This document shows positions 50 to 14,231 of a stretch of 34,981 nt of DNA, piece after piece. Source of the stretch: a virus; the UHGV virus genome UHGV-0117537. One strand, 5' to 3'. The translations under genes were made by a program, and so were the position numbers. The notes below the pieces were generated by a model. That model saw only the letters and a list, made by a program, of their open reading frames with translations. It did not search any database and was not told the origin of the DNA. Within the stretch, counting starts at the first letter, position 1, and each line of letters begins with the position of its first letter.

Positions 50-586
50 ATGCGTCGCGCTAACGATCCGCAACGGCGAGAAAAAATTATCCAGGCCACG
101 CTGGAGGCGGTGAAACTTTACGGAATACATGCTGTTACGCACCGCAAAATTGCTACCCTTGCCGGGGTACCGTTGGGATCGATGACCTACTATTTTTCAG
201 GAATTGATGAGTTGTTGCTGGAGGCGTTCAGCAGTTTTACTGAGATTATGTCCCGGCAATATCAGGCATTTTTTAGCGATGTTAGTGATGCTCAAGGCGC
301 ATGCCAGGCTATCACCGATATGATCTACAGCTCACAGGTTGCAACGCCGGATAATATGGAGCTGATGTACCAGCTCTACGCGCTGGCTAGCCGAAAACCG
401 CTATTAAAAACGGTAATGCAAAACTGGATGCAGCGCAGTCAGCAAACGCTCGAACAATGGTTTGAACCCGGAACCGCCCGCGCGCTTGATGCGTTTATTG
501 AGGGGATGACGCTGCATTTTGTCACCGACCGTAAGCCGCTATCGCGCGAGGAGATTTTGAGGATGGTTGAGAGGGTTGCAGGGTAG
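50..586 (+). CDS. rcdA: TetR-family transcriptional regulator, RcdA/YbjK-like (host gene)
   Basis: ORF 20-586 (TTG-extended); internal ATG at 50 gives 178 aa; N-terminal HTH region ([37 protein letters not shown]) typical of TetR family; protein recalled as RcdA-like from memory. Confidence 0.8.
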
Positions 587-687: not shown

Positions 688-1743
688 TTATGACGGGGTA
701 ATGCCAACCGCTGCCGCCACTTTGTCGCCACTTGGCAGCGTTGCCAGAGGATTGAAACGGAGCGCCGTTTCCAGATGATCCGGTGCCAGATGTGCGTAAC
801 GCATAGTCATTTTTATATCGTGGTGTCCGAGAATTTTTTGTAAGGCCAGAATGTTTCCACCCGACATCATGAAGTGCGCCGCAAACGTATGGCGCAGAAC
901 GTGTGTGAGTTGACCGCGAGGGAGCACGATAGACGTTTTTTCCATTACGGATAAAAATTGAAAATAGCAGTCTGTGAAGAAATTGAATCCATCAAGCGCC
1001 ATGATCTCTTCATAAAGCTCTTTACTGATAGGGATGCTTCTGTTTTTCTTTCCCTTCGTTCTTACAAAGGTAATTCGGTATTTAGTCACCTGTGATCGGG
1101 TAAGGTTTATTGCTTCTCGCCAGCGTGCGCCTGTGCTTAAGCATATCTTGACTACCAGCGCCAGAATTGGGTCCTGACGTTTGCAATCAGCCAGCAGTTC
1201 AACAATCTGCTCATGGGTAAGCCATGCCATCTCTTTTTCTGCGATGGTGAATTTTCGCATGTTCTCCAGTGGGTTTGGATACGACCATTCGCCCAGGCGG
1301 GATAGTTCGCTAAAAACACTACTTAGATAGCTTTGCTCCAGGTTAATGGTGACCGGGCTGGCTCCTTTCTTCCATTTCTCGCTGAAGTAGATCTCACCGG
1401 TCAGGCGTTTATCTCGATAGTGGGCAAACATTTTAGAGGTGAGATTGGTTGCAAGAGGATTGCCTAGAGCGTCAACCATCAGCAGCAATTTGTCATAGAC
1501 ATGCTGCCCAGCAGTCAGAGATTTACCATGTAATTTGAACCATAGCTCAACCACGTCTTTCAGGGTTCGACGATCCACTGATTCGCCCAGCCAGGGCTTT
1601 GATTCGGTTTCTTCCATCGTGTGACGCTCAAAAGCCAGAGCTTCGCCTTTGGTGGCGAATTGTTTACGCACACGACGCCCACTTCGTCCGGCGGGGTAAC
1701 ATTCGCAAAGCCATTTCCCTGTGGTGAGTTTTCGTACTGCCAT
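688..1743 (-). CDS. int: Tyrosine-family site-specific integrase (P2 Int-like)
   Basis: 351 aa; N-terminus MAVRKL..GRSGRRVRKQF and C-terminal catalytic region HVLRHTFAAHFMMSGGNILALQKILGHHDIKMTMRYAHL with terminal tyrosine motif typical of phage integrases. Confidence 0.93.
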   Translation of the reverse strand: MAVRKLTTGKWLCECYPAGRSGRRVRKQFATKGEALAFERHTMEETESKPWLGESVDRRTLKDVVELWFKLHGKSLTAGQHVYDKLLLMVDALGNPLATNLTSKMFAHYRDKRLTGEIYFSEKWKKGASPVTINLEQSYLSSVFSELSRLGEWSYPNPLENMRKFTIAEKEMAWLTHEQIVELLADCKRQDPILALVVKICLSTGARWREAINLTRSQVTKYRITFVRTKGKKNRSIPISKELYEEIMALDGFNFFTDCYFQFLSVMEKTSIVLPRGQLTHVLRHTFAAHFMMSGGNILALQKILGHHDIKMTMRYAHLAPDHLETALRFNPLATLPSGDKVAAAVGITPS

Positions 1744-1813: not shown

Positions 1814-3802
1814 TTAAAAAACATTCTTATCCCCGTGGAAAAAACGTGCAACGTTCAATAGCCAGTCGGGGGTTTTTATTTCATTTGAATTTGCTAGTAT
1901 TTCTAAATATTTTTCGCAAAATTCATTTTTTTTTCCTGGTAATTCGAAATAATCCTCAATAGCTTTTTTTTCTGTAATGTTAAGATTCAAAGCGCCTCCC
2001 GATACTGAAGACTCCATTAACTGTGGGGTTTCCATAAAGGACAAACTAGTTTCTCCTTTAGTGTAAAGCATTTTCAGAGTTTCTACGTAGAAATCAGCAT
2101 TAAGAGACTGCTCAATTTCTGTAGGTGGATAAACTCGATCATCAGTAACTTTAACAAGGCTTATATTAGATAAGTCTTTATCGAGCAAGAGTCTTCTTAT
2201 TTTTATACTTGGTATTGTATCTGTAGCATCATATGGACTATATTTGTGATCTGTATCTAATAATAATAATACTTTTCCTGAGATTGTTGCTTTGCGATCC
2301 TCTAACGCCATAACGAGTAAATTATATATTTTTTTTACTGTAGGGGAGCCACCGACGGATAAAACTATTAGTTTCTCAATGTTTTCATAATCCAAGTGAG
2401 CGGAAATATATTTTCTATCAGTTTTTCCTTCGCACAATATCCAGTTATAATTATTTCCAGATGTTATTGAATAAACAATTGATTGTGCTAAGTCGTGATT
2501 GCTTTTCATTTCTAAAACGTCAAGGCAAGAGCCATTTGACTCTTTTGCTAGTTCCTTTAATTCATCCTTGTAGTTTTCCAGATCGAGTGCTTTGATGTAT
2601 GTTTGAGAGGGGGAAATATATATGGCTGTACCTGAGCCTGTAACAGGTAAAAAACCATACCAATGAGTTGTACAAATAGTCTGTATGCCTAGGTCGCTAA
2701 TTTTTTTTATTTTATCAAATTGATTAAAACATGATGTGGCATGTAAGGATAATTCAGGTTCATCAACAGCAAGAATTGTTGAGTGCTGAGATTTTTGTGG
2801 ATTATGTTTTAAGAAATTGGTAGCAAGATCTAGCAATGCTTTTCTTTTTTCTCCTGAGCTTAAATTTTGCACAGGGGTATCTTTATTAACATCATCAATA
2901 TGATGTAATATTTTATCACTAAAATATGATTCAATTATTTTAGATATCATATGACGTTGAGTGAAACTATTTTGTCGCTGAGATGGTTTTTTAAATTGAT
3001 ATCGCCCCTCAAGCTTTGTAGTTAATTGTCTAATAAAATCATTTAAGTGCGAATTTATTGCTGTAATATCCTTTTTCTTAATGATTTTACTGATTTTTTG
3101 TTGGAGATTTTCACCTAATAAAGACTGTAATAAATCGCTTTCAATCCTTGAGTATTCGGATGTGGTTATTTCTGCAGGTAGGTAAATATAATTATAGATA
3201 TCCTTAATTGTTATTAATAGCTTAGGTAGTATATTGTTAAAATGATATTTTTTATTATTCGTCGAACTATTTTCATTTGCGAGATCATCAATTTGCAATC
3301 GATAATCATCTATAGATTCGAAAATTGACATGTAGGGGCGAGGAATATCATTTGCAGTTTCTTTTATTATCCCAAGGGGAATTAATAAATATTCATCTGA
3401 AGAATATTTGTATTCTAGTTGCTTCCTGTGTGATATAAATTTCTCAGCTATAGGACGTTGCAATGTATTAAAAACTTCACTTTCTATTTGCCAAGTGATA
3501 TCGCTTACGATTTCTAATGCTTTGTATAGGGAATTATTTATCTTTAGCTTGTTTTTATTTATTAAATAAATTGGCACAATGAATGGTTCTCGAGTATCGA
3601 AACCTTGACTGCGCGCTTCATTGTTGATATCAAGTCTATTGATATCAGTTTTATTTAGTACAATATCTAATGCTTGTAATATTGAGCTTTTCCCGACACC
3701 ATTTTCACCAATGAGCCAAGAGGATTTATTGTTTAAAGTGAGTGGGATATAATGTTGATTTTTGAAATTCTTGAAATTTCGTAAAATAACACCAATAATC
3801 AT
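1814..3802 (-). CDS. OLD-family ABC ATPase-TOPRIM nuclease-like protein (class 1 OLD-like; fused PARIS-like not excluded); candidate anti-phage defence cargo
   Basis: 662 aa; Walker A GENGVGKSS near N-terminus, ABC signature LSSGEKR, Walker B/D-loop ILAVDEPELSLH, H-loop TTHW, then C-terminal TOPRIM-like motifs ILCEGKTD and LLLDTD; gene visibly AT-rich relative to flanking phage genes; sits between cI and int. Confidence 0.65.
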   Translation of the reverse strand: MIIGVILRNFKNFKNQHYIPLTLNNKSSWLIGENGVGKSSILQALDIVLNKTDINRLDINNEARSQGFDTREPFIVPIYLINKNKLKINNSLYKALEIVSDITWQIESEVFNTLQRPIAEKFISHRKQLEYKYSSDEYLLIPLGIIKETANDIPRPYMSIFESIDDYRLQIDDLANENSSTNNKKYHFNNILPKLLITIKDIYNYIYLPAEITTSEYSRIESDLLQSLLGENLQQKISKIIKKKDITAINSHLNDFIRQLTTKLEGRYQFKKPSQRQNSFTQRHMISKIIESYFSDKILHHIDDVNKDTPVQNLSSGEKRKALLDLATNFLKHNPQKSQHSTILAVDEPELSLHATSCFNQFDKIKKISDLGIQTICTTHWYGFLPVTGSGTAIYISPSQTYIKALDLENYKDELKELAKESNGSCLDVLEMKSNHDLAQSIVYSITSGNNYNWILCEGKTDRKYISAHLDYENIEKLIVLSVGGSPTVKKIYNLLVMALEDRKATISGKVLLLLDTDHKYSPYDATDTIPSIKIRRLLLDKDLSNISLVKVTDDRVYPPTEIEQSLNADFYVETLKMLYTKGETSLSFMETPQLMESSVSGGALNLNITEKKAIEDYFELPGKKNEFCEKYLEILANSNEIKTPDWLLNVARFFHGDKNVF

Positions 3803-3822: not shown

Positions 3823-4413
3823 TTATTTACAGGTCATAATCACTTTAGCGATGATATTAACATCACTGATATTGCACTCTATTTTTTTTGATTTTGACTC
3901 TAGCATTATGCGGTTATTAGGTAACCTCATTAATTCTCGAACAGAATATATACCGTCAATGGCAATCAACCATAACCCATCATCAATCTCATCCACACCT
4001 CGTCTCACGACATAAGTTATATGCTCATGCTCAAGAGCTGAGATATCTTTTAGGTCATTTGGCAATAGTGATAAATCAAAAATTAAATAGCCATTATCAA
4101 TCAGTTTGCCATCGATAATTTTCTCTCTGGTCAGGCTTACAACATGCGATTTTGCATCCACATACATGGGGCCTTCAGCTGCGGATAGCCAACGAAGTGA
4201 AATACCTGTTTCTAACGCACATTGAATTATCCAATCAGCGGGGAATGTATCTCTCATATATCGATTAGCTAACGTGCTTTTAGAAACACCAAGATGTTCA
4301 GCCAAAGCCTGTCGTGTCGTAAAGCCATAAGCTTCGACTAATCGCTCAATCGCAGCCTTACCACCTTTATTGGGATTTATTTTGATCTCACTTGGGTACT
4401 TTGATGTTGACAT
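3823..4413 (-). CDS. cI: Prophage immunity repressor, 186 CI-like (HTH N-terminal domain)
   Basis: 196 aa; N-terminal HTH (FTTRQALAEHLGVSKSTLANRYMR); divergent from Apl/CII-like genes; size matches 186-type CI rather than 99-aa P2 C. Confidence 0.75.
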   Translation of the reverse strand: MSTSKYPSEIKINPNKGGKAAIERLVEAYGFTTRQALAEHLGVSKSTLANRYMRDTFPADWIIQCALETGISLRWLSAAEGPMYVDAKSHVVSLTREKIIDGKLIDNGYLIFDLSLLPNDLKDISALEHEHITYVVRRGVDEIDDGLWLIAIDGIYSVRELMRLPNNRIMLESKSKKIECNISDVNIIAKVIMTCK

Positions 4414-6563: not shown

Positions 6564-7417
6564 GCACCATCCTGAAATGGGCGGGAAATAAAACCGCCAT
6601 TATGTCCGAACTGAAAAAACATCTTCCTGCTGGTCCGCGACTGGTTGAACCTTTCGCGGGTTCCTGTGCAGTGATGATGGAGACGGATTACCCCAGCTAT
6701 CTTGTTGCGGATATTAATCCTGATTTAATCAACCTCTATAAAAAGGTTGCTGCTGATTGTGAGGCGTTTATATCTCGTGCCAGAGCTTTATTTGAGGAAG
6801 CAAACAGAGAGGTGGCTTATTACAACATAAGGCAGGAGTTTAATTACTCCACTGAAATTACTGATTTCATGAAAGCGGTATATTTTCTGTATCTCAATCG
6901 TCATGGTTACCGTGGGTTATGTCGTTATAACAAGAGCGGGCATTTCAACATTCCATACGGTAATTATAAAAATCCGTATTTCCCTGAAAAAGAAATTCGC
7001 GCATTTGCAGAGAAAGCCCAGCGAGCAACGTTTATCTGCGCCAGCTTTGATGAAACGCTGGCGATGCTGCAGGTGGGGGATGTGGTGTATTGCGATCCGC
7101 CTTATGACGGTACGTTTTCCGGCTATCACACTGATGGTTTCACTGAAGATGACCAGTATCACCTGGCATCTGTTCTTGAATATCGATCATCAGAAGGTCA
7201 TCCAGTCATTGTTTCTAACAGTGACACATCCCTGATCCGTTCGCTGTATCGAAATTTCACTCACCACTACATCAAGGCAAAACGCAGCATCGGCGTGTCG
7301 GCTGGCGAGAGTAAATCTGCAACAGAAATCATTGCTGTTTCCGGGGCGCGCTGCTGGGTGGGATTTGATCCTTCGTGTGGCGTGGATAGTTCTGCTGTGT
7401 ACGAGGTGCGTGTATGA
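6560..7417 (+). CDS. dam: DNA adenine methyltransferase (Dam-like, N6-adenine)
   Basis: 285 aa from internal ATG of ORF 6500-7417; N-terminal KWAGNK and FAGSCAV (AdoMet-binding) motifs and catalytic DPPY ([12 protein letters not shown]). Confidence 0.85.
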
Positions 7418-9828
7418 GTCATGACGATATGAGCAACTCTAGCGGCTTTAACGAGGCCGCTGTAGCATTTTCATGGAACGGCCCGAAAAAGGCCATTAAC
7501 CCTTATCTGGACCCGGCGGAAGTTGCGCTGGAGTCTGCACTTTCAAACCTGATCACTCTGTACGCTGCCGATAATGAGCAGGAACAGCTGCGCCGCGATG
7601 CACTGAGTGAGCAGGTCTGGGAGCGTTATTTCTTTAATGAATCCCGTGATCCTGTCCAGCGTGAAATGGAGCAGGATAAGCTCATTAGTCGGGCAAAGCT
7701 GGCGCATGAACAGCAGCGTTTTAACCCGCACATGGTCATTCTGGCGGACGTCAGCGCCCAGCCTTCCCACATCAGCAAGCCGCTGATGCAACGTATCGAA
7801 TATTTCAGCAGCCTGGGCAGGCCAAAGGCTTATTCTCGCTATCTGCGTGAGACGATTAAGCCATGTCTGGAACGACTGGAGCATGTACGCGACAGTCAGC
7901 TATCCACTTCTTTTCGCTTTATGGCAAGCCATGAAGGGCTGGACGGCCTGCTGATCCTGCCTGAAATGAGTCAGGATCAGGTGAAACGCCTGTCTACCCT
8001 TGTCGCTGCGCATATGAGCATGTGTCTTGATGCCGCTTGTGGTGATTTGTACGCCACCGATGATGTTAAGCCAGAAGAAATCCGCAAGACATGGGAAAGG
8101 GTGGCAGCGGAAACCCTACGTTTGGATGTCATCCCGCCTGCGTTTGAGCAACTCCGTCGGAAAAGAAACCGCCGTAAACCAGTGCCCTATGAACTCATTC
8201 CGGGCTCGCTGGCGCGTATGCTGTGCGCCGACTGGTGGTATCGGAAATTGTGGAAGATGCGTTGCGAATGGCGGGAAGAGCAGTTGCGTGCTGTCTGCCT
8301 GGTCAGCAAAAAAGCATCTCCCTATGTCAGCTATGAAGCTGTGATGCATAAACGTGAGCAGCGCCGTAAGTCGCTGGAGTTTTTCCGTTCTCATGAACTG
8401 GTGAACGAAGACGGAGACGCGCTGGATATGGAAGATGTGGTAAACGCCAGCTGCAGCAACCCGGCGCATCGCCGCAATGAGATGATGGCCTGTGTTAAAG
8501 GTCTGGAGCTTATCGCGGAAATGCGCGGTGACTGCGCCGTTTTCTACACCATTACCTGTCCGTCACGTTTCCATTCCACGCTAAATAACGGCAGACCCAA
8601 CCCGACCTGGAAAAACGCGACGGTAAGACAAAGCAGCGATTATCTGGTCGGTATGTTTGCTGCATTTCGTAAGGCGATGCACAAAGCCGGGTTGCGCTGG
8701 TATGGCGTGCGGGTGGCTGAGCCGCATCACGACGGCACAGTTCACTGGCACCTGTTGTGTTTCATGCGCAAAAAAGACCGCCGCGCCATTACTGCATTGT
8801 TGCGTAAGTTTGCTATCCGTGAAGACCGCGAGGAGCTGGGCAATAACACGGGGCCGCGCTTTAAGTCTGAGCTGATTAACCCGCGCAAAGGAACGCCGAC
8901 AAGCTACATAGCGAAATACATCAGTAAGAACATTGACGGGCGTGGTCTGGCTGGCGAGATCAGCAAGGAAACGGGTAAATCTCTTCGTGATAACGCTGAA
9001 TACGTGAATGCCTGGGCGTCTTTGCATCGTGTTCAGCAATTCCGCTTCTTTGGTATTCCGGGGCGTCAGGCTTACCGTGAACTGCGATTGCTGGCTGGTC
9101 AGGCGGCAAGGCAGCAGGGTGACAAAAAAGCAGGTGTGCCGGTACTGGATAACCCGCGCCTTGATGCCATTCTGGCTGCTGCTGATGCTGGTTGTTTTGC
9201 CACCTATATCATGAAGCAGGGAGGTGTACTGGTTCCCCGTAAATATCACCTCATCAGAACTGCTTATGAAATTAACGAAGAGCCGACCGCCTATGGCGAT
9301 CACGGTATTCGTATTTATGGCATCTGGTCACCCATTGCAGAGGGCAAGATCTGCACTCATGCAGTGAAGTGGAAAATGGTTCGTAAGGCCGTTGACGTTC
9401 AGGAGGCGGCAGCCGACCAGGGCGCTTGCGCCCCTTGGACTCGTGGCAATAACTGTCCCCTTGCTGAAAATTTGAACCAACAAGGGAAAGACAAATCAGC
9501 TGATGGGGACTCCAGAACGGATATTACCCGTATGAATGACAAGGAGTTGCACGATTACCTGCACAGTATGAGCAAAAAAGAGCGCCGGGAACTGGCTGCA
9601 AGGTTACGCCAGGTGAAACCGAAACGGCGTAAAGACTACAAACAGCGAATTACAGACCATCAGCGACAGCAGCTCGTCTATGAACTGAAGTCCAGGGGAT
9701 TTGATGGCAGCGAGAAAGAAGTCGATTTGCTCCTTCGCGGCGGCAGTATTCCGTCAGGAGCAGGCCTGCGTATCTTCTATCGGAACCAGCGTCTGAAGGA
9801 AGATGATAAGTGGCGGAACCTGTATTAA
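7414..9828 (+). CDS. A: Rolling-circle replication initiation endonuclease (P2 gpA-like)
   Basis: 804 aa; conserved HWH-type metal motif (TVHWHLLCF) and active-site tyrosine region ([14 protein letters not shown]) typical of P2 A / phiX174 A family; position after early operon. Confidence 0.88.
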
Positions 9829-9920
9829 TTACGCGGGTTAACAATTCGTGCTCTTAATAATACCAGGCATATCAGGCCGATGAACGTAAAAAAACGTTTT
9901 ACATCAGTAAGATTATTATA

Positions 9921-9940
9921 TACTGTAAATATAAACAGTG
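9921..9940. promoter_or_regulatory. LexA (SOS) box taCTGTaaatataaaCAGtg
   Basis: CTGT-N8-ACAG with AT-rich spacer, close match to the LexA consensus; about 40 bp upstream of a strong AGGAGG RBS and the 9981 ORF. Confidence 0.7.
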
Positions 9941-9980
9941 GTTATGTATACAGTATTGTTTTGGTGTCATAGGAGGAAAG

Positions 9981-10169
9981 ATGCAGGACTATTTTTTGGA
10001 GTCTTTGAAGCTTCAGCGCATTGATTTTTTTCTTAAGCTTGTAGCGGCTAGTGAGTGTAGTGATGAAGAGAAGGGGCTGGCTCTGCAGTGGGTTTCTGAA
10101 TTGACTGATGAACTTATGGCAAAAATCAGAAGTCACGAATACAACCGCTCAATGGATGTCATCAGCTGA
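9981..10169 (+). CDS. Small SOS-controlled protein (possible N-terminal part of a Tum-like antirepressor)
   Basis: 62-aa ORF preceded by AGGAGG RBS and the LexA box; immediately followed by the DinI-like ORF. Confidence 0.5.
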   Translation: MQDYFLESLKLQRIDFFLKLVAASECSDEEKGLALQWVSELTDELMAKIRSHEYNRSMDVIS

Positions 10170-10179
10170 GGTGACTTTT

Positions 10180-10413
10180 ATGCGCATTGAAATAATGATC
10201 GATAAAGAGCAGAAGATTAGCCAGTCTACCCTGGACGCCCTTGAATCCGAGCTTTACCGCAATCTGCGCCCCCTGTATCCCAAAACGGTAATTCGCATTC
10301 GCAAAGGTAGCTCTAACGGTGTGGAACTAACCGGACTGCAACTGGATGAAGAAAGAAAACAAGTGATGAAAATTATGCAGAAGGTGTGGGAGGACGACAG
10401 CTGGCTGCATTAA
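10180..10413 (+). CDS. DinI-family protein (Tum C-terminal-like / DinI-like)
   Basis: 77 aa from internal ATG of ORF 10108-10413; MRIEIMIDK...SWLH resembles DinI family (MRIEV... start, acidic C-terminus). Confidence 0.75.
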   Translation: MRIEIMIDKEQKISQSTLDALESELYRNLRPLYPKTVIRIRKGSSNGVELTGLQLDEERKQVMKIMQKVWEDDSWLH

Positions 10414-10605
10414 GAAACGTGGCCCCCAGGAGGATTCATTCTGATGGGGGCTAGTTTGGGCAATGAGTGAAATAAGGCGTAAGGTGGGCGGTTATTTTGA
10501 TAAGTGATCGTCCGCTTTGTGTCAGAAGCAGAAGTGGGAGTGTCTGAGACTCTCTAAAAGTTGATGATTCACTTACAAAACCATTTTCCTGATGGATGCT
10601 TACAC

Positions 10606-10941
10606 TTACGAATGATCATTCTGTTTAGTCTTCATGAGAAAATCCCGAATCTTTGCCAAGTTTGAATTTTCGGGGATTGAATCCATGTACGGATCACGCT
10701 CAAACACTAATTGCTCAGATTCAACGAAAGCCTGCCACTCTACTGGGTCTAGCTCAAATCCCATTGCTGTCATATCACTTTCATCTTCCCCCTCGATCCA
10801 GTGGACTAAATAAAACAATTCATCATCAGGAGAATCATCCTCACCATCAACAATATCAACATCGGTTACAGTGATACGTAGGGTGGGATCGATTTTTGAG
10901 ACATAAATTCCTAACTGTGGTATAGGGGGAATATTGTTCAT
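10606..10941 (-). CDS. Hypothetical acidic protein (orphan, accessory)
   Basis: 111-aa ORF on opposite strand to surrounding genes; strongly acidic (runs of D/E: DGEDDSPDDE, EGEDESD); no family recognised. Confidence 0.45.
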   Translation of the reverse strand: MNNIPPIPQLGIYVSKIDPTLRITVTDVDIVDGEDDSPDDELFYLVHWIEGEDESDMTAMGFELDPVEWQAFVESEQLVFERDPYMDSIPENSNLAKIRDFLMKTKQNDHS

Positions 10942-11320
10942 GGAAACTCCTTTTATTGGTGTTTGCTATTTGAATAAAAATACGCCAAACAGAGTGTTAA
11001 CTGTGAATATGGAAAGAATCGTTGTAAGTACCCCGCTTAGGTGTCCCATTCTATTTTAGAGGTTCTCGTGCATATGGATTATGTTATCTGAAAGCTAACT
11101 TCCGCTTCCCGTTCACAGCGAACATTCATCTTTGTAAACCCGTATGATCCGTTTTTCAAGTGGCCATTCAGATACGGATTTTCACTTCCTTGACAGTGCA
11201 TGACTATGCTGCATGAAATCGCATGATCGATTGAGGATCGTCTTTGCTCAGATCCGCCAGAACTGGCGGGCTTTTGCTCATGTCATGCATGTGCATGAAA
11301 ACCACTGCATAAAGCGGGCA

Positions 11321-11340
11321 GGCGTGGCGGGGATACGAGC
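11321..11340. other. Candidate cos (cohesive-end) site
   Basis: GGCGTGGCGGGGA... resembles the 19-nt cohesive ends recalled for 186/P2 (GGCG(T/A)GGCGGGGAAAGCA); GC-rich island in otherwise AT-rich intergenic region between A-side genes and portal side. Confidence 0.3.
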
Positions 11341-11415
11341 GCGCGGAAGCAGTTTCACATGTAATTCGATTGGTGTAATCTAAACTACAACTTAAGAAAA
11401 GAGAATGAGTAAACC

Positions 11416-13155
11416 ATGGAATTGCACGCATATACTAGAACCATATCAGAATTACTTTCGGTTAATAGAAAATATGTTGTCCCAAGATTTCAGCGAGAAT
11501 ATTCTTGGGTAAAAGAACAAATTAATGAGCTTTGGTATGATGTAATATCTAATATCAAATTAGAGAATGATTTCACATATTCTAATAATGAGTATTTTAT
11601 TGGTTCTTTAGTTTTAGTTGGAGATGAAACAGGAAGGGAAATGCAAATAGTTGATGGTCAGCAACGACTTACAACTCTTACGATTTTTCTTTCCGTTTTA
11701 TGTGAGGCGTTCAAGCTAAACAATCAATCAGATTTAGCATCTGCTCTATTTGAAAATTATATTGAAGGTCGTGATGATGATGGTAAGAAATTTTTTAAGC
11801 TAATAAATGAAACACCTAAGCCTTTTTTTCAGAAAAATATCCAACACCTTAATAAGGCAGATGACGCACCCCAGACACAAGAGGAGCGAAATCTCTTGTC
11901 TGCATATAAGGAAATTACATCGTTAGCCTCAAAGGAAAAATTGGGAAAGCATTTTTCAGTCGAAATTAATACTGAAGATAATTATTCCAGTGTATTAAAA
12001 GCAATTAGGGATCAGATTTTAAGATTTCTTAAGATAATTTTTATTACTGTTAATGAAGAGGACGAGGCGTATACAATATTTGAAACATTAAATGCGAGAG
12101 GGATGAATTTAAGTTTTGTAGATCTAATTAAAAATAAATTATTTAAAGCGTTAAACAACCCTCATCCAAATGATGATGCAAAAGATAATTGGAAGGCTAT
12201 ACGTACTACTTTAATGCAAAGAAATGGTGTAGGGACTTTTGAAAATTTCATGAGGCACTGGTGGGTGTCGAAGTATGCTTACGTGAGCAATGAAAATCTT
12301 TATAAGTCCTTTATTGGAAAATGGCGTAAGGGGGAAATTAATCCGGTAACCTTTATTGAAGAATTGAAACAGGATGCCGAATTGTATGTACGCTTGTCAT
12401 CTCCTTTGGAGAGTGATTATCCACAAATGGAAGATAAACAGATATTCCATTCGTTGAATGCAATTAGGCTATTTGGTATAACGCAGTGTAGACCTTTTTT
12501 ATTAGCTTTACTAAAGGCAAAACAGCAAAGGAGATTGCGTCAATGTGATCTTTTAAAAGCAGTTAAATATATTGAAAATTTTCATTTTGTATTTAATGCG
12601 ATATGTTCATTAAGGCCGTCAGGGATAGAAGGTGCATATTCTAAGGCCGCAAGAGCAATAAATTCACCAAATGCTACAAAAGTAACTAATGGTACAACAA
12701 TTGAACAGTTATGCTTGTTGTTGAGTAACCGCAAGCCAGAAATTTCTGTATTCACTGAAAATTTCAGAGATATATTATTTACTGATGACAACTCCAAGCA
12801 AAAAAGATTGGTCCAATATATTATAAATAAATTTGAAATGGCCCGTCATAATGGAGATGAGTATCGTCCTAATTCTATTTCTTTAGAGCATATAATGCCT
12901 CAAAGTGCTGGCAACGATAAGGAAATAGGAATGATTGGAAATATAATCCCTCTGTCAAAAGAACTTAATGAGCAAGCTGGTAATAAATCATTGGCACAAA
13001 AGCTCTCTATCTATTCACAATCGGAGTTTAGATTGACGGAAGAGTTTATTAGTGAACTTGAAACCATTTACCATAATGAATGGAATCTCCAGTCTATTAT
13101 TCAGAAGACAGATAGAATGGCTGGTGAGGCTTATATGAATATTTGGAGTCATTAA
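11416..13155 (+). CDS. DUF262/DUF1524 (GmrSD/BrxU-like) type IV restriction endonuclease-like protein; candidate anti-phage defence cargo
   Basis: 579 aa; N-terminal DGQQR motif (QIVDGQQRLTTL) diagnostic of DUF262/ParB-like NTPase domain, C-terminal His-Me/HNH-like motif (ISLEHIMPQS) of DUF1524; markedly AT-rich; located between replication gene and portal gene. Confidence 0.72.
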   Translation: MELHAYTRTISELLSVNRKYVVPRFQREYSWVKEQINELWYDVISNIKLENDFTYSNNEYFIGSLVLVGDETGREMQIVDGQQRLTTLTIFLSVLCEAFKLNNQSDLASALFENYIEGRDDDGKKFFKLINETPKPFFQKNIQHLNKADDAPQTQEERNLLSAYKEITSLASKEKLGKHFSVEINTEDNYSSVLKAIRDQILRFLKIIFITVNEEDEAYTIFETLNARGMNLSFVDLIKNKLFKALNNPHPNDDAKDNWKAIRTTLMQRNGVGTFENFMRHWWVSKYAYVSNENLYKSFIGKWRKGEINPVTFIEELKQDAELYVRLSSPLESDYPQMEDKQIFHSLNAIRLFGITQCRPFLLALLKAKQQRRLRQCDLLKAVKYIENFHFVFNAICSLRPSGIEGAYSKAARAINSPNATKVTNGTTIEQLCLLLSNRKPEISVFTENFRDILFTDDNSKQKRLVQYIINKFEMARHNGDEYRPNSISLEHIMPQSAGNDKEIGMIGNIIPLSKELNEQAGNKSLAQKLSIYSQSEFRLTEEFISELETIYHNEWNLQSIIQKTDRMAGEAYMNIWSH

Positions 13156-13199: not shown

Positions 13200-14231
13200 T
13201 TACTCCAACACGTAATTGCCAAATGAAATTATTGGCTCCCCAATCCATTTGTTTAATTCGCATATGAGTTTTTGTAAGGGAATTAACTCGTTTCTTACAA
13301 ATACCTTACTAGCTTTCTCTACATCCCCAAATCCCCCGACATTATTTGGCATTATCCCCATCATTTGCGGCGGCACTCGGTGTGCTGCCATCATGTCATC
13401 GCGGCTGACATTTTTGATATTCAGAAACTCATCCTTTGCCGCAACTTCTGACAAAGGGATGATCTGAAGGCCGTCCTTTTTGCCGTTAGGCGAGTACATA
13501 AACAGGTTGCGGAAGTTGCCTGGACCTTTGGCGCTTTTCATCGCGTTGCGGAGGTTGTTCACATCCTCCTGATTCTGCGCGGCGTCGGTCATGTACATGA
13601 TGAAGCCTGCATGGCTGCCGTTGATGTAATACTTACGGCGGAATAGCGTGGCGGATTCGTTGAGCAGGGCGGATGGAATGGCAGAAAGATAGCCGGGCAG
13701 GCCGTAGATCTCCTGGTTGATGTCCGGTTCCATCAGATGAAAAATGCTGCCTTTCGTGAACTGATACGGCTGGGTTGTCATGCCGTATTGCACAAACCAG
13801 TAGGTATCCAGGTCTAACCCGCGTCGGGTGTATTTTGCCAGCGCAGGCTCAAGGGCGATAACTTCACCGAATCGGTTCGTGCGTTTCTCCAGGTAGGCGT
13901 TACCAAATACCAGATAGTCCTGCACAAAACGCGAAAAAGCCTGCTGGCTGAGCAGCGGATGAGGGATATAGGTACTGGTCAGAATGTTGCACTTTACTGC
14001 AATCGGGGAACTGTGATGCACGGCAGCGCGGAAGGTGCGCGCCAGTCCGTCAAAGCTGACGGGCGGCTCATACCAACGGTCCATCTGTACGCATTCCACA
14101 TAGTCCAGCAGTTCTCGGCGGTCCAGAACAGGAACGGGATCGCCGAAGCTGAATGCTTCGGCTGTAGTCTGGCTTTTAAGCTGGATCTGTTTCGTCGCCG
14201 CAGCGCGGTTCTTCTTACTCTTTCCCATCAA
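13200..14231 (-). CDS. Q: Portal protein (P2 gpQ-like)
   Basis: 343 aa, size and position (adjacent to, and co-oriented with, terminase P) match P2 Q. Confidence 0.9.
   Translation of the reverse strand: MMGKSKKNRAAATKQIQLKSQTTAEAFSFGDPVPVLDRRELLDYVECVQMDRWYEPPVSFDGLARTFRAAVHHSSPIAVKCNILTSTYIPHPLLSQQAFSRFVQDYLVFGNAYLEKRTNRFGEVIALEPALAKYTRRGLDLDTYWFVQYGMTTQPYQFTKGSIFHLMEPDINQEIYGLPGYLSAIPSALLNESATLFRRKYYINGSHAGFIMYMTDAAQNQEDVNNLRNAMKSAKGPGNFRNLFMYSPNGKKDGLQIIPLSEVAAKDEFLNIKNVSRDDMMAAHRVPPQMMGIMPNNVGGFGDVEKASKVFVRNELIPLQKLICELNKWIGEPIISFGNYVLE

Follow-up and report, generated by a model that had tools for sequence, protein, structure and literature searches.

The window analysed here, the whole stretch of 34,981 nucleotides of UHGV virus genome UHGV-0117537, is a 186/P2-like (Peduoviridae) prophage, in which an ORF on the minus strand between replication gene A and portal gene Q encodes a strongly acidic protein of 111 residues (Table 1). 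The protein has 26 Asp and Glu against 7 Lys and Arg residues; its pI was computed as 4.05 and its net charge as about -19, to which residues 31-60 contribute -12. Re-reading of the sequence confirmed the location, strand and length given in a preliminary description of the locus, as well as its two Asp/Glu runs (DGEDDSPDDE and EGEDESD) and the opposite orientation of the ORF, which is convergent with the early-operon genes A, orf62 and DinI-like. With a GC content of about 0.39-0.42, this stretch lies below the phage core (about 0.53). Two plus-strand ORFs inside the acidic gene (10634-10813 and 10653-10874) were treated as shadow ORFs. The mechanical ORF of the DinI-like gene (10108-10413) comprises 101 aa from an upstream ATG, and the RefSeq start at 10180 reduces it to 77 aa; as the prophage is 186-like (CI, CII/CP76, Fil), this gene may encode a Tum-type DinI-like antirepressor.

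Table 1. Features of the window around the acidic ORF, in window positions, followed by predicted elements of its protein product, in residues
Feature	Position	Strand	Remarks
Integrase gene	688-1743	-	gene map
186-type CI repressor gene	3823-4413	-	gene map
CII/CP76, Fil, DUF5347 and Dam methylase genes	between CI repressor gene and gene A		gene map
Replication gene A	7414-9828		followed by a 62-aa ORF (orf62)
DinI-like gene	10180-10413	+	77 aa, WP_001217575.1; conserved left flank of the slot
GC-rich hairpin GCCCCCA...TGGGGGC	10421-10452		between the convergent DinI-like gene and acidic ORF; left edge of the variable block
Cargo sub-slot 1 (DinI-like gene end to cos)	10424-11192		769 bp; holds the acidic ORF; BLAST breakpoints
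Core mobile module	10570-11104	-	ORF, about 165 nt upstream and 36 nt downstream; about 535 bp
Acidic 111-aa protein CDS	10606-10941	-	ATG start; stop codon 10606-10608; identical to WP_001059831.1
Shine-Dalgarno AGGAG	10947-10951	-	5 nt 5' of the ATG of the acidic ORF; read from the sequence
Weak candidate sigma-70 promoter	10977-11007	-	TTCACA, 19-nt spacer, TATTTT; looser scan
Conserved cos element	11193-11348		contains GGCGTGGCGGGGATACGAGC starting near 11322; BLAST and SEN8 record end
GmrSD-like type IV restriction gene	11416-13155	+	DUF262 N-terminal and GmrSD_C; PADLOC HEC-06/Orf5; sub-slot 2 cargo
Portal gene Q	13200-14231	-	followed by terminase gene P
Predicted strands of the acidic protein	residues 11-15, 22-31, 43-50, 61-64, 78-82		AlphaFold2
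Predicted acidic loops	residues 32-42 (low confidence), 51-60		AlphaFold2
Predicted helices	residues 66-76; short helix, then C-terminal 94-108		AlphaFold2

The acidic ORF is a real gene under purifying selection and not a chance ORF, because comparison with homologues from seven other loci gave dN/dS values of 0.07-0.26 (Nei-Gojobori, unsaturated dS only) and because 61 homologous protein clusters were found. The reading frame is kept across genera, and so are the start codon and the Shine-Dalgarno sequence in an alignment of homologous modules, which have AAGGA at the equivalent position.

The protein had also been considered an orphan without a recognisable family, a view that had to be abandoned. 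It is 100% identical to RefSeq WP_001059831.1 (PGAP name "DUF8087 domain-containing protein"), the precomputed annotation PF26332 (DUF8087) is attached to each of the 61 homologue clusters, P0001 with 98% identity among them, and PHROG 17127 (unknown function) was matched at E = 2e-70, with residues 1-111 on profile positions 1-111 of 111. Given these entries DUF8087 is a catalogued family, one without an assigned function, and the membership of the acidic protein is taken from the precomputed annotations and the PGAP name rather than from a direct HMM match. The ORF had no match in the local Pfam-A, NCBIfam or PADLOC collections (0 families of the PADLOC-DB v2 defence models at E up to 1), scanning the 61 members of the family against Pfam returned only noise, and searches of the PDB with 25- and 61-sequence profiles (E up to 10) gave no match either. 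Full-text literature searches for DUF8087 and WP_001059831 likewise gave no match.

The 61 clusters, at 50-98% identity, derive from Escherichia, Raoultella, Providencia, Morganella, Citrobacter, Edwardsiella, Enterobacter, Scandinavium, Serratia, Pectobacterium, Xenorhabdus and Klebsiella, and amino acid identity across genera reaches 85-90%. A profile search of 1.84 billion representatives yielded 35 proteins, with distant relatives at E-values down to 1e-24; these distant relatives, of 70-106 aa, match residues 1-80 only. The relatives examined are all acidic (net charge -7 to -19), the first acidic loop is missing in some and up to about 12 residues long in others, and some short relatives, for instance that of Nitrosospira, have a basic N-terminal extension. 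In Nitrosospira (L018) and a metagenome (L024) the gene with this extension (MGQAKxRG...) occupies a fixed site, divergent from an HTH_17-rep operon. In tblastn searches for which the window protein and one distant relative served as queries, DUF8087 was not found in 50,697 phage records, and a search of 72,556 plasmid records returned a single E. coli record; apart from that record, the DUF8087 loci that we located are in chromosomally integrated elements. The block that contains the acidic ORF is present in about 131 of the 5,426 complete E. coli genomes, E2348/69 among them, and the flanking sequences in about 1,300.

The region between A and Q is a known cos-proximal (tin/old) hotspot of P2-type prophages, the gpA-gpQ hotspot (Rousset et al. 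2022, PMC9122126). In BLAST comparisons with sister prophages (L007, L008, L026, L027) homology ends at 10423, resumes at 11193-11198 for about 150 bp, ends again at 11345-11348 and then returns near 13240. The intervening element of about 150 bp is common to P2/186-like phages that have neither of the two cargo genes, and the linear record of Salmonella phage SEN8 has its right end at about window position 11320. Of the sequence GGCGTGGCGGGGATACGAGC in this element, the first 13 bases presumably match the cohesive end of phage 186. The element is identified as cos by this 186-like cohesive-end sequence and the SEN8 record end. The exact P2 cos 19-mer was absent within 3 mismatches, the cos of the window being 186-like (GGCGTGGCGGGG...). 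The gpA-gpQ hotspot is split at cos into two independently assorting sub-slots, A-cos and cos-Q, and there is a third cargo slot in the lysogeny operon, between cI and int.

In related prophages sub-slot 1 is empty (68 bp in phage 813R9) or holds either a 372-aa DUF2971/PDC-S31 gene or a 225-aa hypothetical gene; sub-slot 2 is filled here by the GmrSD-like gene. The ORF was originally described as lying in an accessory slot beside cos and a type IV restriction-like gene. The slot, its low GC content and the adjacency of the two genes on the prophage map were all recovered, but cos separates the genes, and because it does so they would lie at opposite ends of the genome in virion DNA, the acidic ORF about 380 bp from the right end. 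Like other cargo of the P2-like gpA-gpQ hotspot (PMC9122126; Moura de Sousa et al. 2026, PMC13586616), the acidic ORF is located between A and Q, adjoins cos, is low in GC, varies among related prophages and is replaced in the sisters, but in contrast to the defence cargo of the hotspot it has no PADLOC match and it sits in the DinI-cos sub-slot.

Two further ORFs of the window touch on these slots. A plus-strand ORF at 11213-11383, annotated in some RefSeq genomes as the 64-aa hypothetical protein WP_072199413.1, spans cos and the recombination boundary of slot 2, so that its C-terminus differs from cargo to cargo, and a real gene is improbable here. Between the CI repressor and integrase genes, a 662-aa AAA_15/AAA_21 ATPase is encoded on the minus strand (1814-3802; PADLOC AriA at 1e-23 and Old at 1e-17); this OLD/AriA-like ATPase gene occupies the cI-int interval in which Klebsiella prophages have Flk_N and DUF8087 genes.

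We observed no dependency between the acidic ORF and the GmrSD-like gene, which matches PADLOC HEC-06 at 1e-92 and has a GC content of 0.30-0.35. The latter was found at 94% identity in four of the 5,426 complete E. coli genomes; in the two of these four that were examined it lies in the cos-Q slot, with the DUF2971 gene in slot 1 and the acidic ORF absent. In a third E. coli copy, an IS2 lies under the match. The combination present in the window was found in none of the 5,426 genomes, so that all four copies of the GmrSD-like gene occur without the acidic ORF. Conversely, at least eight different cos-Q cargoes accompany an identical acidic protein, for instance a PDC-S59-like 416-aa gene, a Sll1717-family ATPase, a DprA-like gene (in E2348/69) and a retron Ec67-type reverse transcriptase. 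Among the entries of Table S5A of an earlier study (PMC9122126) that concern WP_001059831, the protein is listed as 'hypothetical', together with a hypothetical gene and an RVT_1 gene in BL21(DE3) and REL606 and, at further loci, with two more RVT_1 genes and one AAA_15/21 ATPase. That table comprises 18,150 gpA-gpQ loci; reverse-transcriptase cargoes accounted for 4 of the 7 loci considered here. Since the acidic ORF and the GmrSD-like gene assort independently, the co-variation with the neighbouring defence gene that the preliminary description had suggested looking for came out negative. By this distribution, the acidic ORF does not appear to be a partner of the GmrSD-like gene. The RVT_1 cargo of BL21(DE3) and REL606 we take to be retron Ec86.

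The gene also recurs beyond P2-like prophages. A module of about 535 bp is present at 84-88% nucleotide identity in Serratia, Symbiopectobacterium, Lonsdalea, Proteus and Morganella, with the same breakpoints in all five genera (10570 and 11104-11119 in window positions), and none of these copies adjoins P2 genes. The contexts of DUF8087 genes include a CP4-57-like island, where the gene directly follows a Mokosh type II MkoC gene (E = 0), an ICE-like region that also encodes DUF2857 and a DUF4365-TPR protein, another in which Imm42 and VirB3/4 (T4SS) genes are present, an integrase-rich island with MC2/CTD6/AAA_23 genes, an inovirus-like prophage of Xenorhabdus and a lone copy at the pgsA-uvrC attachment site of Pantoea. 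For the homologue P0035 no contig was found. In small betaproteobacterial integrative elements the order is int, DUF8087 and then HTH_17 and a GPA-type replication gene, and the defence cargo of these elements consists of a TIR-STAND protein or of Gabija-like genes with a BglII-type R-M system. DUF8087 genes are thus recurrently located beside defence genes on integrated mobile elements, and the shared breakpoints show that the gene is transferred horizontally as a unit of about 535 bp among prophages, islands and ICE-like regions of several enterobacterial genera. Terminal repeats were considered as a basis for the mobility of the cassette, and only short repeats at chance level were found.

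In Klebsiella P2-like prophages the gene is part of a tight operon, in the order C repressor, Flk_N, DUF8087 and int, with an overlap of 4 nt with int. The Flk_N-annotated gene directly upstream of DUF8087 at these loci (L009-L013, 6343-6990) encodes 215 aa and had no local Pfam or PADLOC match; it could be a functional partner of DUF8087 in that lineage. In Serratia, Lonsdalea and Proteus (L003, 6330-6530; L005/L006, 6340-6921) a conserved palindrome (GGCAAA...TTTGCC) and an extended -10-like sequence (TGTATAAT) come after the DUF8087 module, and in Lonsdalea and Proteus these are followed by a 127-aa ORF without a Pfam family, which may be a second small cargo gene travelling with the module.

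A standard consensus scan returned neither a promoter nor a terminator for the acidic ORF; both hexamers of the weak candidate promoter from a looser scan (Table 1) are conserved in six aligned modules. The hairpin lies about 150 nt downstream of the ORF and is predicted at -24.7 kcal/mol (z -2.8) on the plus strand and -17.9 kcal/mol (z -2.4) on the minus strand relative to shuffled controls, which makes a putative two-way terminator plausible. A structured RNA in the conserved 5' region was rejected, as none of the 39 pairs proposed by RNAalifold has a compensatory change and the covariation term is positive; Rfam (positions 9800-11500, E up to 1) gave no match. Identity in the upstream region is similar to that at third codon positions, so that there is no clear extra constraint on it. 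An inverted repeat in this region (ACAG-N8-CTGT) was discarded as a LexA box because of its wrong polarity.

AlphaFold2 gave five concordant models with the 61-sequence alignment (mean pLDDT 83, pTM 0.68) and a pLDDT of 76 with the 25-sequence alignment. By this prediction the acidic protein would be soluble and fold into a small SH3-like beta-barrel that has two loops rich in Asp and Glu and lacks catalytic features. Compared with known anti-defence, anti-restriction and DNA-mimic proteins, it showed no similarity in sequence or predicted fold. It shares with T7 Ocr and ArdA a small size, richness in Asp and Glu and a location on mobile elements, but neither sequence nor fold. The predicted fold may resemble that of CarS of Myxococcus xanthus (PMC2926617), an acidic five-stranded SH3-like barrel of about 80-110 aa, and this antirepressor is an SH3-topology mimic of operator DNA (PMC2926617); by analogy, a CarS-like fold could plausibly obstruct a DNA-recognition helix. 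TifA (Orf65) of Enterococcus phage phi47, which inhibits GmrSD-like type IV restriction enzymes (PMC11322646), is likewise small, SH3-like, about 21-23% acidic, without a B-DNA-like shape and encoded near a GmrSD-type enzyme. In contrast to DUF8087, which is on prophages and islands, lacks similarity in the phage collection and is unlinked to GmrSD, TifA is borne by a lytic phage.

These observations are best explained by an accessory gene of the DUF8087 family that would form a moron-like cassette, consisting of the ORF, its upstream region and the nearby hairpin, in the DinI-cos sub-slot. As with phage morons, there is a discrete insertion of deviant GC content with its own upstream region and a nearby hairpin, oriented independently of the flanking operon; unlike morons, the cassette is also found outside phages (in the CP4-57-like island and ICE-like regions), and promoter and terminator are only candidates. 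Transcription of the acidic ORF would be independent of the lytic early operon, and the gene is probably expressed in the lysogen, because of its placement in the repressor-integrase operon of Klebsiella and its orientation against the lytic early operon. The protein would act in stoichiometric amounts, as a ligand that masks the basic surface through which another protein binds nucleic acids; binding seems a better explanation than catalysis because of the core of about 70 aa, the conserved acidity with variable loops and the lack of catalytic signatures. To such a binding inhibitor with a role in conflicts between mobile elements we assign a probability of roughly one in three.

The target that we rank first would be a nuclease of an immune system or a different DNA-binding protein, belonging to a competing element or to the host, which would make DUF8087 an anti-defence factor. 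The conserved acidity of the family, its SH3-like predicted fold and the defence-gene neighbours on several kinds of elements are in line with this, as are the precedents of small acidic SH3-like inhibitors, CarS (PMC2926617) and TifA (PMC11322646). An anti-restriction function during entry fits poorly, because genes of that type are common in phage and plasmid collections such as those searched, from which DUF8087 is absent except for the one plasmid record, and because the operon in Klebsiella suggests that the gene is expressed by the lysogen and not on entry. Moreover, selection on the gene is purifying and not diversifying and its slots otherwise hold defence cargo, and a role in defence or one directed at the host would account for this just as well. 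In P2-like prophages, known anti-defence genes are reported to be rare (28 of 1,511; PMC13586616). The suggestion of a DNA mimic or anti-defence factor made in the preliminary description thus gains from the acidity, the predicted fold and the neighbours and loses from the lack of co-variation and of similarity to solved mimics. We rank the anti-defence role only narrowly ahead of a defensive decoy role.

In that decoy role the acidic barrel would act in the lysogen as a defensive or exclusion factor, sequestering an essential DNA- or RNA-binding protein of superinfecting phages, and would thus be an immunity cargo made of protein only, as are its slot-mates. The DinI-cos and cI-int slots otherwise hold genes for defence or candidate defence functions (DUF2971/PDC-S31 and the OLD/AriA-like ATPase), the placement of DUF8087 in the lysogeny operon of Klebsiella fits, and its absence from phage records is what may be expected of a gene that benefits the lysogen. 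What makes us regard it as doubtful, though worth keeping in mind, is that the protein has no effector, sensor, membrane or enzymatic domain and no PADLOC match. To our knowledge, few stand-alone defence proteins are small, soluble and acidic.

A host-directed role would be the modulation of nucleoid proteins, in which the acidic protein binds proteins of the H-NS/HU type and thereby relieves the silencing of AT-rich cargo. Acidic mimics that bind H-NS exist, for instance Arn of phage T4, and DUF8087 is always located within low-GC cargo (such as the GmrSD-like gene), is indifferent to the identity of the neighbouring genes and, the one plasmid record aside, belongs to chromosomally integrated elements. 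The occurrence of the family in small integrative elements of Betaproteobacteria, and the lack of similarity to known H-NS antagonists, make this role improbable.

Somewhat less probable still is an orphan immunity protein against an interbacterial nuclease toxin (bacteriocin, CDI or T6SS), which would give the lysogen a competitive gain. The protein is indeed small, acidic and mobile, an Imm42 gene lies 600 bp downstream of DUF8087 on the same strand in Symbiopectobacterium, and an Hcp gene lies within 5 kb in Morganella. However, no adjacent cognate toxin was found in about 15 contexts, the immunity-gene neighbour is the only one of its kind, and the conservation across genera is unusually high for immunity proteins.

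That the protein is a dedicated partner of GmrSD, as an antitoxin-like safety inhibitor or a regulator, is suggested by the adjacency on the prophage map and the TifA precedent (PMC11322646), but is very improbable and largely refuted by the lack of co-variation, given cos between the two genes, the unrelated cargoes in slot 2 and the absence of the combination from the complete E. coli genomes. Finally, a non-functional chance or decaying ORF, for which the missing functional annotation and the lack of a confident promoter could be cited, is hardly credible in view of the low dN/dS, the frame kept across genera, the strong Shine-Dalgarno sequence, the confident AlphaFold2 fold and the distant relatives.

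The sequence, the DUF8087 family and the gpA-gpQ hotspot were already known from databases and literature; new here are the two-slot anatomy around cos, the autonomous cassette across several kinds of elements, the fold prediction and the negative co-variation. The two slots that flank cos, together with the cI-int slot, are a modest but useful addition to the annotation of P2/186-like prophages. If the acidic protein has no role of the kind proposed, its gene would simply join the conserved hypothetical genes among the cargo of a hotspot that is already well described. We tentatively suggest, as one of the less likely outcomes, that DUF8087 is a new family of small acidic SH3-like inhibitors, expressed during lysogeny by prophages, satellite-like integrative elements and islands and acting as broad anti-defence factors or as non-enzymatic decoy immunity proteins. 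BL21(DE3) and REL606 carry the gene beside their reverse-transcriptase cargo, and any effect on defence assays in these strains would be of practical interest. If the protein does inhibit defence or serve as a decoy against incoming phages, the small acidic inhibitors in mobile-element conflicts would gain a new fold family, and the hotspots of P2-type prophages would carry more than enzymatic defence systems.
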